Both the position numbers and the translations under genes were made by a program. A stretch of 64,000 bases of DNA from Iphione sp. A-MEVVRFRX5 (Eukaryota). Every line of letters starts with the position of its first letter. The first letter of the stretch is position 1. Under the pieces are notes generated by a model that made no database searches, was not told the DNA's origin, and saw only the letters and a program-made list of their open reading frames with translations. Shown piece after piece: positions 12,093 to 22,438 of this stretch. The stretch is taken from positions 14,694,001-14,758,000 of the forward strand of contig OZ320320.1 of the NCBI GenBank assembly GCA_976226885.1, written 5' to 3'.

Positions 12093-12570
12093 TGTGACAC
12101 AGTACGGTTATAAGTTAAGAACATATGCATGTGAAAAGGGATGTACTGTGTCTGTATAGTGTACAGTTATACGCAGTAAAGAAGGGCCTTTTACTGGTGA
12201 CGCAGTTTAAAATTTTTCGCTTGGCGTATGTGATGCCTAAAGTGTAAACAGGTTGTTCCTTATCTTGTTAACGAAGTGGCTATTACAATTAACGAGGTAT
12301 TATCAGCAATGAGCACGTGATACTGTAACCAGTTGGAGTCGACACAATGGGTGATCAATCGTGTGCTGTCTAACAAGACATCCGCTGTTGATAACACAGC
12401 AAGTTTCGCATATTTTTGTTAGCGTGTTTACATCACTAAGTTGTATATAAGGATTGACGTGCGCGTCCCTAGTTGGGATCCGCCTGAGACGACCGTGTAA
12501 CCTGTGTTGCTGCATTTCTGCAATAAAGGCCGGACGATTGAAGAACCTGCTCGTGGTGTCTTTTGTTACA
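12093..12570 (+). repeat. 5' LTR (TATATAA 12444-12450; AATAAA 12522-12527)
   Basis: Ungapped match to 21961-22438 with 10 substitutions counted by hand. Confidence 0.97.
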
Positions 12571-12585
12571 CCCGAGAATATATTT

Positions 12586-12603
12586 TGGTGCCGTGACCAG
12601 GAT
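12586..12603 (+). promoter_or_regulatory. Primer-binding site complementary to the 3' end of tRNA-His
   Basis: TGGTGCCGTGACCAGGAT matches the reverse complement of the eukaryotic tRNA-His acceptor end (...CACGGCACCA). It lies 15 nt downstream of the LTR. Confidence 0.85.
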
Positions 12604-12631
12604 TTGTCTGTGCTGCACGAAAGAAGGGTGA

Positions 12632-13186
12632 ATGTGGGCGTCACCGCATCTCCCTTTCATAGAGGATGTCGCAGAAACTGCCAATCGGTGTGTGGCGTAC
12701 GCTGGTGCGCAGACACGCTCCACTCCAGCATGTAGAACGTGGCCACACGGGCAGGGACACGGGTTACTGCCGACGCCGCCAGTCTCGTACTTGTGCCTGA
12801 CAAAGACATTCGATCGACCTGGACGCCACCTGCATACTGGCTGGGTGCCTCTGTGGGTGTCTGACTCCCTACAAGATGTGGTGGCTTTGGCTCCTCATTC
12901 TGATGTGCATTTTGTAGCTGCATCAGTAAGGCAGAGAAGAGTGGAGGTGTCGGACGACGGGCAGGAGACGACAGCAGACGAAGGGGCGCGAGCTGAGGAT
13001 CTCCGCGTCACGGTTTCAGCAGTTGCAGGCAAGGGCACCCCCGATCCAACCGAGGGCCGGTCAGAAGAGAGACCAGGGACCATCATCCCTATCCCCAGAC
13101 GAAAGCGACAGCAGGTGTCGGCGCACGAGGCACTGATGAGCGAGGCGTTGGGGCGCAAGAGACGAAGGAGCGAGGCAATCCTATAA
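12632..13186 (+). CDS. Hypothetical 184-aa leader ORF of the provirus, with a basic C-terminus
   Basis: Longest ORF between PBS and gag, with PRRKR and RKRRR clusters. No recognised domain. Confidence 0.3.
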   Translation: MWASPHLPFIEDVAETANRCVAYAGAQTRSTPACRTWPHGQGHGLLPTPPVSYLCLTKTFDRPGRHLHTGWVPLWVSDSLQDVVALAPHSDVHFVAASVRQRRVEVSDDGQETTADEGARAEDLRVTVSAVAGKGTPDPTEGRSEERPGTIIPIPRRKRQQVSAHEALMSEALGRKRRRSEAIL

Positions 13187-13493
13187 GTGCATCGGGAAGG
13201 ACGGATGTCGCTGGCCGATGCGCAGATAGTGTGGCGGATGGGCGTAGCGTGAGGAAACCGGAGGACACCGCCACCCGAATTGCGGCCAGGGGCGCCGATC
13301 TTCGACTAAGAACAACGATTGAAAAGAGAGACTATGATGCCGAAAAACAGAATGGACTTGCGACATTGCCAAGGTGAGCGGGAGTTATTTCTGTCCACAA
13401 TTGCCAACCAAGGGTGTTGGGGAATGAGGGCGGACTAGGGCAACTATGAGGGATGGTTGCTGAATTGTAGCTGGGCTGGGACCAGGGAGAGGT

Positions 13494-18948: not shown

Positions 18949-18951
18949 TTA

Positions 18952-21132
18952 ATGCGGTGCTCTTCTTTGGTTCCAGGTGGCCTCTTGGTTCTGGTGTTGT
19001 TGTCGTGGGTTGGCCAATCGCAGGAAGGCTCCTTGGAAAATGTGATCTTCAAAAAGAGGTTGGATGTGAGGTCGGTATTGTCCACTTGGCGGATTGATCT
19101 GGTGTCGGAGTACGATCAGTACAAGAAAACCAGCTATGATTTGCAAGAACAACTGAACGAGACTCGACATGGGTTCTTAAAGACGGCGTATTTGGTTATG
19201 CCGCCACGTCACCGTTATGGGAACCGTATGCGTACGGAAACTGTCACGCGAACCCTGATGAGGTCACAGTTGGATCGAGCGGATGTATTGTTAGATCAAA
19301 TACATCTGAGCCTGCAGCGGATTAACAACATAGCGCGGCTCAGGGTACAGACTCGGCGTATTCCGTTTGCTACGGTTCATGACCCTGCTTTGAACCGTAC
19401 GAGGCATAGGAGGAAACGTGCAGTCATGGTGGCAGCTGTGGCCGGTCTTATCACCTTGGTCTCTGGCACCGCTACTGGTTTCGGTGTGGTGGGAAATGAG
19501 ATCCATGTTATCAAACACCGAGTAGGACAAATGGAGAGACAACAGCTGGAGATGTTGACTATCATGGGGGACATGATGACTATTATCAACCAAACTCGGA
19601 TGGATATCAGGCGCAACCGAGATGGTATTAATGACGTGATGCATAAGTTGCAATTGGTAGAAGGAGACTTATGGGAGGCTTTACAGCAAGCTAGCAATAT
19701 CACTGCTAAGGAGATACAATACATACACACCATCCTGAACGCCGAACAATATTTCTCACAGTTTGAGTATCAGGTGTCGGCTTGGGAGGGTGCAGTTGGC
19801 CAACTTGAGGCCCGAGTGGATCATCTGTTAGGGGGGCATTTGACACCGGAGGTCGTTCCGGCTACTGAATTAAAGGAGCTGCTCGCCAATGTGGCCCGGC
19901 AGTTGCCTCCAACACTCCAACTGCCATTCGATCCCGATGATGTATGGAGCTATTATAGTACTTTGGAGACAACTACCATCATCTTCGAGGGCCGTATTAT
20001 TACTTCCGTGAGTGTTTCGCTGATCGACCCTATGGCTTCTTATATGATGTATGAAGCTGTGAATATTCCTGTTCCCATACAGGCGGGTCAAGCCATACAA
20101 TTCCGACTAGAGTTTACGTATTTCGGAATAACTAAGGATAGGAGACGTTATGCTATCGCGACTACGGAGGAACTAGTTAGGTGTCAGTTACGAAAAGGTT
20201 CCTGTCTTGTCTCCTCCCCGGTGTATGAACTAAACATGCATTCTTATTGCGTTATGGCAATCTTCCGAGGGGAGGTGGAACGTGTTCGCGAACTGTGTCA
20301 GCGAATTGTGTTGGACAATGTATCTATGCCACAGGCACCATACTTGGATAGAGGCAATTGGGTAGTAACCACACCTGTGGACTTGACCTTACGGATTCAG
20401 TGTGTAAATGGTACTACATATCAGCGAAATGTACCTGTGCCTTTTGCGTTGGTAAACCTGCCGAACGGTTGTGGAGCCGTGGGGGACCAAATGTCCCTGC
20501 CGACTTACTATCAGCAGAGAAGCGAATATGAGGTAGAGCGAGACCCTGTTGTTCTACCCTCTGGATTGGTGGTGAACGAACTTATGGTTTGGACCCCAAA
20601 TCTGCCCGAGGCTTCCAATCACACGGCGAACTTGCATCCGCTTCTGGCGTTGTTGGAATCAGACATGGCAGACATCATGCAACATATCAATAACTTACAT
20701 GACTGAGTGGCTGACAATCCCTTGTTGCCGGGTACGTCAGTGACCTCTACTATCATCTGGGCATTAGGAGGACTGAGTTCGGCGTTGACTTTGGGAATGT
20801 GCTGTTATTGCTGCTTGTGTAAGAAGGGAAGATGGAGGCGCTTAGCTCAGCAAGCACCTATGGGGCCGCGGGGGTCGGGAAACGGGTCGGCTCCCATTAC
20901 AATTAATTTGGGGGAAACCAGTTCTAAAGATAGCCCTGAACGAGTGCGACCCACTAACGCTGCCCTTACGTATGCTATTCCACCCCTGCCTGAGCCTGAA
21001 AGAGTAGTGCCTGAGTGTGCTGTCCGTTTGTCCAATGGACCGTCCCAACAGCTTGAAGTTTTCAGACCAGAGGGCAATGTGGGGGCGCATGCAACGGCCC
21101 CCAGGAAGTATCCCTTCTCTGTATTTCAATAG
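18952..21132 (+). pseudogene. env: Envelope, class I fusion glycoprotein (baculovirus F / errantivirus Env-like); in-frame TGA at 20704-20706 before the TM anchor
   Basis: Signal-like N-terminus, furin site RRKR (19408-19419), hydrophobic fusion peptide AVMVAAVAGLITLVSGTATGFGVVG, heptad-rich region, Cys-rich block and 7 ectodomain N-glycosylation sequons. The same frame continues (20707-21132) into a TM segment IIWALGGLSSALTLGMCCYCCLC followed by KKGRWRR. About 726 codons in total. Confidence 0.88.
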
Positions 21133-21946
21133 ATGGGTTGAGGTACATGGTTGGCGGGTGGAGAGAAGATCTCCCGCTCAAGATGTGCTGTTGTTATGGT
21201 ATTGTCGACGGGAGTTTCAGACCAGTGGGTCTTTTGCTCAAAATGTGTTGTTGTTGCTGTTATTCTTAAAAGAATGATACAGTATCAAAAAAAAAAATAT
21301 ATATATATACATTGAGTGTATTCAACGAATGTTGTGTCATGTAATGTGTGTGTGTAACTACATTTAACTGTTCAATGAAGGTGTGATAGTCCAAGGACCA
21401 ACGGTAATGGATTGTAAGCGATTGTGTTACATATTGCCTGCTCGGAGGATATGATCGTTCAAGAGGTGTAAAGGGAAGTTAGCAACGGGAAGGCGCATGA
21501 CCATCATGGAAGATCGAGAGGACAGGGCTCCCAGTTGTACATATCGTTTTGGAGCACCCTCCTCTTGGCGCTCTATAGGGTATGGTCTGAGCCTTAGGGC
21601 CGCCATTCTTTTACTCTTTCCTAGGAAACCAAGATAAACTTCCAAAAGTGGGCCAGACACAAGTCTGTTACCCCTACCTGTGGAAGGTCTCTCATGGTCA
21701 GGTAGCGAGTCTGAGCTCGAATGTCCTTAGCTCTTGGTTTCCATTCTTGGTCAACTGACCCTCTATCTCTTTCCTTTCTTTTCCTTGGCCGGTTGTGGAA
21801 GTGATCGCATCCCTCAAAATGAACCACCTCTGTTTAGTATGCCAGTTGGGCAGAGGGCGGTTGGTCTGTTTGGTGAATGACCTCTCTTGAATGACCTCTC
21901 ATGAATGGCCTTCTCTCAAAGGCCTTGTAATGAGAATATTACTCTC

Positions 21947-21960
21947 AAGGAGGGGAGGGA
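21947..21960 (+). promoter_or_regulatory. Polypurine tract
   Basis: AAGGAGGGGAGGGA directly abuts the 3' LTR. Confidence 0.9.
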
Positions 21961-22438
21961 TGTGACACAGTACGGTTATAAGTTAAGAACATATGCATGT
22001 GAAAAGGGATGTACTGTGTCTATATAGTGTACAGTTATACGCAGTAAAGAAGGGCCTTTTACTGGTGACGCAGTTTAAAATTTTTCGCTTGGCGTACGTG
22101 ATGCCTAAAGTGTAAACAGGTTGATCCTTATCTTGTTAACGAAGTGGCTATTACAATTAACAAGGTATTATCAGCAATGAGCACGTGATACTGTAACCAG
22201 TTGGAGTCGACACAATGGTTGATCAATCGTGTGCTGTCTAACGAGACATCCGCTGTTGATAACACAGCAAGTTTCGCATATTTTCGTTAGCGTGTTTACG
22301 TCACTAAGTTGTATATAAGGATTGACGTGCGCGTCCCTAGTTGGGATCCGCCTGAGACGACCGTGTAACCTGTGTTGCTGCGTTTCTGCAATAAAGGCCG
22401 GACGATTGAAGAACCTGCTTGTGGTGTCTTTTGTTACA
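21961..22438 (+). repeat. 3' LTR
   Basis: 478-bp copy of 12093-12570, followed by the TSD ACAT. Confidence 0.97.

Follow-up and report, generated by a model that had tools for sequence, protein, structure and literature searches.

Chary & Hayashi (PMC13524379) listed 1,512 env-bearing Ty3/Gypsy elements, among them 'ancient errantiviruses' with F-type env from polychaetes and molluscs. In the portion of that paper used throughout this work, F-type elements primed by tRNA-His occupy four polychaete and ten mollusc rows, and the six His-primed elements checked there all belong to reverse transcriptase (RT) clade G. Until now, catalogues of env-bearing Gypsy elements from hosts other than insects have covered only gag, pol and env. 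In the MDG1/412 elements, two accessory open reading frames (ORFs) stand before gag; according to Voichek et al. (10.1101/2025.03.14.642691, also used in part), sORF1 is a soluble nuclear protein with a predicted helix-turn-helix and sORF2 is a small membrane protein. Here we analysed a window of 64,000 nucleotides (the whole stretch presented; contig OZ320320.1, positions 14,694,001 to 14,758,000, assembly GCA_976226885.1) from Iphione sp. A-MEVVRFRX5. Its positions 12093..22438, plus strand, hold a Ty3/Gypsy provirus whose start and end coordinates are exact.

Our results suggested that this provirus is probably a dead copy of an amplified annelid Ty3/Gypsy element with five genes (ORF0-sTM-gag-pol-F-type env), which likely spread as enveloped particles, with a predicted spliced env and leader proteins of likely accessory function. 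All five genes were found under purifying selection: for variants shared among copies, the ratio of nonsynonymous to synonymous changes (dN/dS) is 0.02-0.08 in gag, pol and env, 0.15 in the pol tail and about 0.2 in the leader genes. The kind of element is already known; what is new is two selected accessory genes together with env. A preliminary description, made from the letters of this DNA, had expected novelty probably at the lineage or accessory-gene level, and the two selected leader genes answer to this expectation.

Structure of the element and its family

The provirus has the following features:

12089 to 12092 (+): 5' target-site duplication (TSD) ACAT, pairing with the 3' TSD
12093 to 12570 (+): 5' long terminal repeat (LTR), TATATAA at 12444, AATAAA at 12522
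12571 to 12585 (+): 15-nt spacer from the LTR to the primer-binding site (PBS)
12586 to 12603 (+): PBS for tRNA-His, first 12 nt complementary to the His_GUG 12-mer tabulated in PMC13524379
12632 to 13309 (+): accessory gene ORF0, about 235 amino acids (aa) in unbroken copies; ends at stop 13184-13186 in the window copy (184 aa)
13334 to 13373 (+): predicted env exon 1 (13 codons from the ATG, plus 1 nt), followed by donor GT at 13374
13494 to 13652 (+): accessory gene sTM, a 52-aa single-pass membrane protein by hydropathy, unbroken in the window copy
13669 to 14778 (+): gag with two CCHC knuckles, stop 14731-14733 within the second; dN/dS 0.06
14793 to 18948 (+): pol (protease, dUTPase-like insert, RT, RNase H, integrase, acidic tail), stop 17154-17156, frameshift near 18280
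18950 to 18976 (+): predicted env splice acceptor (pyrimidine tract, AG 18975-18976)
18977 to 21132 (+): main exon of env, predicted F-type fusion protein, stop 20704-20706; dN/dS 0.02-0.07
19408 to 19419 (+): env furin site RRKR
from 19420 (+): env fusion peptide
about 20752 to 20820 (+): env membrane segment
21133 to 21946 (+): 3' non-coding region, about 390 bp shorter near 21894-21907 than in most aligned copies
21947 to 21960 (+): polypurine tract (PPT)
21961 to 22438 (+): 3' LTR
22439 to 22442 (+): 3' TSD ACAT

Each LTR is 478 bp long with TGT...ACA ends, and the pair differs at 10 positions (2.1%), 7 of which are CpG-type transitions; a divergence of about 2% had been estimated before. 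TG...CA LTRs, a short TSD, a PBS and a PPT make up the Metaviridae (Ty3/Gypsy) feature set, and the Pfam domains stand in Gypsy order (zinc knuckle, then protease, RT, RNase H and integrase). The coordinates and hallmarks given in the preliminary description were all found in place, and so was its env-bearing Gypsy element, with env after a Ty3/Gypsy pol and inside the LTRs.

An exact 4-bp TSD is present in 20 of the 22 two-LTR copies of the window element's family (family A), and the LTR pairs within these 22 copies differ by 2.1-6.9%. The offset between LTR and PBS is 15 nt in 19 of them and 16 nt in one, and the motif is mutated in two. The PBS usually lies 2 nt from the LTR end; in most His-primed families of the host genome (including 12571-12585 here and L185-L204) it lies 8-15 nt off. 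With such a far-set PBS the integrase would need to trim a long cDNA end.

Both the leader and the 3' region had been called ORF-rich, which holds for the leader but not for the non-coding 3' region. Among 20 copies, every frame of the 3' region has stop columns, with dN/dS of 0.47-0.94 and no coding signal, and all of its ORFs were rejected as genes. No LTR frame carried a purifying-selection signal in the shared variants of 20 copies.

The mitochondrial contig of the assembly carries every gene on the same strand, arranged as nad1-nad3-nad2-cox1-cox2-cox3-nad6-cob-atp6-nad5-nad4L-nad4, which we take to be the typical annelid order. By this order the host is an annelid, placed to phylum level, in line with the earlier remark that it does not look like a dipteran.

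The window copy is dead. Its stops lie at 13184 (ORF0), 14731 (gag), 17154 (pol) and 20704 (env), and pol has a frameshift near 18280. In the 20-row whole-element alignment, which omits two copies with large indels (c05 and c20), three of the four stops were seen in none of the 19 other copies; 3 of these share the pol stop. The provirus, previously called complete, is so in structure but not in coding capacity, with four stops, one frameshift and about 390 bp of the 3' region missing. The inclusion rule of PMC13524379, uninterrupted gag, pol and env, leaves out the window copy and admits the family, since all five frames are open in 6 of 13 sampled family A copies; the guess that intact relatives exist was thus correct.

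The His primer 18-mer occurs 2,775 times in the genome, versus 0 for the reversed control. Twenty His-primer sites were sampled from the start of one contig on the plus strand, skipping four known family sites, and are therefore not a random set: 13 belong to family A, 1 to family B, 5 to family C and 1 to another group. The env of family B is 61% identical to that of family A and the env of family C 37%. Extrapolation from the sampled sites suggests about two thousand copies of the family, or about 2% of the genome. This large family expanded recently, with pairs up to 99.6% identical in one family A subfamily, so that expression, splicing and localisation should be directly observable in the host. 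The env DNA had 40 scored genome matches at 85-100% identity (env frame unbroken in 4 of 30 fetched), and the ORF0 DNA at least 151 (150 scored out of 1,899 candidates). Two distant loci, 38-40% identical, turned up in a metagenome scan.

In a quick RT tree of in-genome families and database matches, families A, B and C form one clade (SH-aLRT 99), sister to other His-primed env families (96). About six more His-primed F-env families (L185-L204) were noticed in the genome, with env of about 670-790 codons, pol 38-53% identical and short leaders; the host genome is unusually rich in env-bearing Gypsy elements.

Two leader genes under purifying selection

ORF0 and sTM were compared among 39 leader copies (L120 and L132 omitted). 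Variants were split into private ones (post-insertion) and shared ones (from active lineages), and CpG sites were masked in the leader counts. Shared variants comprised 37 nonsynonymous and 63 synonymous changes in ORF0 (dN/dS 0.22, p 6e-14) and 11 and 17 in sTM (dN/dS 0.21, p 4e-5). Private variants were neutral (1.20 in ORF0 and 1.15 in sTM), and so were shifted frames and the gap between the two genes, the weakest control being the +1 frame of sTM (0.53, p 0.09). In a smaller set of 21 copies the sTM signal was only suggestive (p 0.07 masked, 0.007 unmasked). Third codon positions of the two genes are 65% identical versus 83-90% at first and second positions, and no stop column occurs across 225 codons of ORF0 or 52 codons of sTM. 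The ATG of ORF0 is kept in 38 of 39 copies, the ATG and 52-aa length of sTM in 31 of 39, and the lengths of both genes are stable across subfamilies at about 80% DNA identity. ORF0 and sTM are genuine genes under purifying selection.

The same layout was found in families B and C, where the first ORF is long and its N-terminal motif similar, and a hydrophobic ORF follows shortly before gag. ORF0 ranges from 235 to 308 aa across families, the sTM counterpart has 58 aa in family B and 67 aa in family C, and sTM sits 15-16 nt upstream of gag in families A and C. In family C, silent changes outnumber replacement changes in both ORF0 (43 versus 24) and sTM (9 versus 3). In the sister env families, none of 14 loci with PBS and gag had a leader ORF of at least 120 aa or a hydrophobic ORF of at least 35 aa. 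Because families A, B and C form a clade sharing this layout, which none of the 14 sister-family leaders has, the ORF0-sTM pair likely arose once, on the A+B+C branch.

ORF0 has Arg-rich clusters and is mostly disordered, with a C-terminal helix pair (pLDDT, the model's confidence score, 55-74 at residues 181-230). No fold was assigned to it, as the structural matches of this low-confidence model are generic helix pairs with Z of at most 5.6. The hydropathy of sTM is 2.95 at residues 4-24 (a hydropathy scan rather than a topology predictor). Three other kinds of leader ORF were rejected as genes. A 26-codon ORF overlapping sTM is kept in 36 of 39 copies, but its dN/dS is above 1, and it is a by-product of sTM; a 34-codon ORF at 13334 is neutral as a whole, only its first 13 codons fitting as an exon; and all reverse-strand ORFs were discarded.

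The two leader proteins are likely helpers like those of complex retroviruses. For sTM, the sequence makes it a plausible candidate, held with some reserve, for aiding particle assembly, release or cell-to-cell passage at the membrane. Its gene falls within the predicted env intron, with 16 nt between it and gag, so that sTM would be produced together with Gag and act at the membrane of the producing cell. More tentatively, by analogy with MDG1 sORF1, ORF0 might be a nuclear regulator of element RNA or transcription; it would stand first on both genomic and spliced RNA. It is rather unlikely that these real genes serve evasion of host defence (e.g. antagonism of PIWI-interacting RNAs or silencing) and not RNA regulation or particle release. 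Their confinement to the clade holding 19 of the 20 sampled His-primed sites would fit any fitness advantage, but their dN/dS of about 0.2 gives no signal of positive selection and no homology to known suppressors was found.

The env gene and its predicted F-type fusion protein

Reading through one stop as X, the env frame has 726 codons, and both this length and the parts listed in the preliminary description were confirmed: a furin site RRKR, a fusion peptide, long helices, a Cys block, a membrane segment and a cytoplasmic tail of about 100 aa. Only the transmembrane segment needs qualification, as it is present but moderately hydrophobic (no 19-mer above 1.8). A full HMMER search with env found 1,201 relatives, the best full-length ones being 25-30% identical; two of the ten looked up are named, from abalone and scallop. 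In a 128-row alignment, almost no variation occurs at furin Arg156, at fusion-peptide Gly164 and Gly172 or at six Cys.

A word-indexed protein search with env scored none of 7,999 candidates, and a PDB search with the single sequence returned nothing useful. The profile of 128 env homologs matched PDB 9w4d, annotated as 'fusion protein', with E 4e-23. The monomer model (pLDDT 77) matched post-fusion F of respiratory syncytial virus (RSV; E 2.5e-9), F of human parainfluenza virus 3 (hPIV3; 1.8e-8) and baculovirus F (3.5e-20). Similarity to class I fusion proteins, whose absence would count against the F-type claim made earlier, was thus found at both profile and structure level, and by these profile and model matches the predicted env product is an F-type class I fusion protein. 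The env model also matched, at rank 4 (E 6.8e-18), an uncharacterised protein of an abalone herpesvirus, a hint from modelled structure at possible exchange of F genes between mollusc viruses and retroelements.

Predicted splicing of env

Env likely starts in the 13-codon exon between ORF0 and sTM, which by sequence prediction would be spliced to the acceptor 30 nt past the pol stop. Of 59 copies, 57 retain the GTGAG donor at 13374, and an in-frame ATG lies 12-14 codons upstream of it in 53 of these 57. The acceptor AG is kept in 52 of 53 correctly anchored copies (55 rows minus two mis-anchored). By coordinate arithmetic, the predicted 40-nt exon is in phase 1, as is the acceptor. In family B the same donor is preceded by a phase-1 ATG, and env has none at its start; in family C no ATG precedes the donor, and env has its own after the acceptor; acceptor-like signals are similar in both. 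This covariation of ATG and donor across families, seen at the sequence level, is the best support for predicted env splicing. The short basic peptide of exon 1 would supply the front of the env signal peptide. A leader exon spliced to env is the arrangement mapped in ZAM and Beagle, and the part of Senti et al. (10.1101/2023.08.03.551782) used here gives a precedent for such an exon.

Alternatively, env could be translated from unspliced RNA, starting at the ATG 3 nt after the pol stop (18952 position) by termination-reinitiation or readthrough, which we regard as improbable. This in-frame ATG, together with a hydrophobic signal-like stretch, occurs in 42 of 53 copies including the window copy, and other genes of the element likewise start close after a stop. 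However, it is absent in 11 of the 53, and most of these retain a full env frame; in a sample of 12 copies, 11 have no ATG at this position, and an open env frame of 731 codons persists in 8 of the 11. Env frame, donor and acceptor are also preserved in family B and in the youngest subfamily, neither of which has this ATG. Env probably does not begin with the ATG at 18952, and splicing from the leader exon is the preferred reading.

gag and pol

The pol domains follow the order protease-RT-RNase H-integrase (Pfam matches, in order, PF17917/PF17919, PF00078, PF17921, PF00665) with a Ty3-type RNase H, and dN/dS on shared variants of 20 copies is 0.02-0.08. Among the RT relatives, the named ones belong to Patella (55%) and Haliotis (53%). 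The spacer from the gag stop to the pol start is 14, 15 or 16 nt depending on the subfamily in family A, and in family C the gag stop overlaps the pol start. A fixed gag-pol frameshift in family A was rejected, because the spacer occurs in all three frames. From the sequence, pol seems likely to start at its own ATG and not by frameshift. In 5 of 6 sister families a GGGAAAC heptamer, presumably a frameshift site, lies near the end of gag.

Some further observations concern this region. An acceptor-like signal at 14747-14770 stands just before the gag stop in family A, inside coding sequence, and could serve a spliced pol RNA. The insert between protease and RT (about 15190-15450) has a weak dUTPase match (E 0.17) and is under selection. 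The C-terminal tail of pol (18290-18948) is acidic, of low complexity and about 220 aa long, with dN/dS 0.15; a short stretch of it is common to families A-C and E, and it is a possible integration-targeting region. Three close pol relatives (P0210, P0239 and P0268) are labelled as 'Ca. Thiodiazotropha' genome-bin proteins, which are probably host retroelement DNA in symbiont assemblies.

Proposed mechanism and comparison with known systems

In the proposed mechanism, tRNA-His would prime reverse transcription and integration would leave a 4-bp duplication. Genomic RNA from the 5' LTR would give ORF0, sTM, Gag and Pol, and spliced RNA would give Env. Furin cleavage at RRKR would free the fusion peptide, the Env trimer would fuse particle and target membranes, and the element would likely have passed from cell to cell as enveloped particles.

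Several points weigh against this reading. The case is built on DNA sequence and models. The selection counts use variant classes, not tree branches, with an assumed 4:1 transition weight. Family B is represented by one copy with a broken ORF0, and the similarity of ORF0 between families A and C is weak (E 0.018). ORF0 has no homolog in the protein collection, Pfam or ESM Atlas (best Pfam match SHOCT-like, E 0.16), and its model is poor (pLDDT 39). The predicted exon 1 has no codon-position bias (0.91/0.90/0.90, equal to the adjacent intron), and coding constraint could add to the conservation of the acceptor, because it overlaps an ATG-initiated frame in 42 of 53 copies. Gag would have to be translated from behind two upstream ORFs. 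The env fold reaches TM-scores of only 0.3-0.5. The search with Baculo_F (PF12259) proposed in the preliminary description put the window env just below the cut-off (23.5 versus 24.1 bits, E 2.5e-5); 6 of 10 env relatives scanned passed it.

The element very probably belongs with the ancient errantiviruses of PMC13524379. It shares with them gag-pol-env, an F-type env with furin site and fusion peptide, env placed after pol within the LTRs, and a lophotrochozoan host; its F fold has head and stalk in the monomer model. In most annelid and mollusc rows of PMC13524379 the His primer site is set off from the annotated end of the LTR by up to about 20 nt, and it is likewise offset here. Some of those elements are 10-11 kb long, and host, primer and size here match clade G members. 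The catalogued F-env elements of polychaetes and molluscs also bear out the earlier statement that env-bearing Gypsy elements exist outside insects. The leader genes differ: outside its references, the main text of PMC13524379 mentions no accessory ORF, sORF or splicing. Its His-primed elements, compared here by description and not by sequence, may also carry leader genes unnoticed. In the literature reached by our search, accessory genes in the leader were not reported for any annelid or mollusc Gypsy element with env; subscription journals, Repbase, figures and bioRxiv supplements lay outside it and could hold such a report. The parts of PMC8220671 and PMC8556966 used have nothing on env or extra ORFs in annelid elements.

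Insect errantiviruses (gypsy, ZAM, Idefix) differ in their insect hosts and Ser/Lys/Leu primers from this element with an annelid host and a His primer. Drosophila errantiviruses use Ser or Lys primers and have a pseudo-RNase H bridge, and the passages covered describe no such leader gene pair in them. For the ancient errantiviruses, PMC13524379 gives a bridge of RNase H and a 'mini' domain in place of a pseudo-RNase H. Baculovirus F and paramyxovirus/pneumovirus F share with this Env the class I fusion fold, furin site, fusion peptide and heptad helices; identity is 8-15%, and here the protein is retroelement-encoded and has a cytoplasmic tail of about 100 aa. Lokiretroviruses are a vertebrate retrovirus-like lineage. 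Per PMC13524379, they too are retroelements with a paramyxovirus/pneumovirus-like F env; in contrast, the pol of the present element carries one RNase H, of Ty3 type, and those of its relatives that are named come from mollusc elements.

The MDG1/412 elements of Voichek et al. resemble this element in their two accessory ORFs before gag. As described there, they are env-less and found in insects only, whereas env is kept here; sORF1 is about 110 aa long versus 235-308 aa for ORF0; and sORF2 has a myristoylated ectodomain of about 30 aa and a polybasic region, both absent from sTM. It is very unlikely that sTM is a FAST/sORF2-like cell-cell fusogen, giving the element two routes of spread through Env and direct transfer. 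As a second small ORF before gag with a single membrane helix (by hydropathy), sTM holds the same position as MDG1 sORF2, and its Cys residues could be palmitoylated, a variant that the search of Voichek et al. excludes, as its authors note. On three further sORF2/FAST features of that work, however, sTM fails by sequence. The size of 60-210 aa with an ectodomain of 10-50 aa fits family C (67 aa) but not family A (52 aa, helix from residue 4, almost no ectodomain) or family B (58 aa). The MGxxxS/T myristoylation motif is absent in all three, and each has 1 Lys/Arg within 15 residues after the helix, where at least 3 are expected. A second fusogen is also not needed, because env is under strong selection.

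Conserved packaging signals are common in leaders, and ORF0 has no homolog or confident fold, but an ordinary three-gene ancient errantivirus whose leader ORFs are chance frames in conserved RNA structure is highly improbable given the codon-position pattern, the lack of stop columns, the neutral shifted frames and gap, and the stable ORF lengths.

Within the preferred five-gene reading, a broader and rather doubtful proposal is a 'complex' invertebrate retrovirus lineage. An env-bearing Gypsy clade would have independently gained a nuclear regulator and a small membrane accessory protein (analogues of Rev/Tat, Vpu or sORF1/sORF2), uncoupled pol from gag and, with these, expanded to about two thousand copies in an annelid genome. 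If true, the step from a simple to a complex retrovirus-like genome was also taken in marine invertebrates, and a full envelope is compatible with the MDG1-like design, in which a soluble and a small membrane protein precede gag. That would be relevant to the question whether small membrane proteins of this sort stand in for Env or have a different task.

Other features of the window

A tyrosine-recombinase retrotransposon lies at 27037-31274 (+), with a gag-like ORF (27154-28059), RT/RNase H (28060-30102) and a recombinase (29990-30988). Its split direct repeats (27037-27176 with 31051-31190, and 30999-31057 with 31216-31274) are both 100% identical, and we take it to be a young Ngaro-type element. 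A long interspersed element (LINE) ORF2 of 933 codons with endonuclease and RT lies at 38224-41025 (+), and a LINE-like fragment at 57702-58448 has no Pfam match. Two ORFs at 61370-62285 (+) resemble, by eye and with no Pfam match, the gag region of another DIRS-type element; beside them, at about 60500-61200, is a tandem array with a 33-bp unit. A dispersed repeat of about 340 bp occurs at 5897-6240 and 52977-53321, the two copies being 93% identical.

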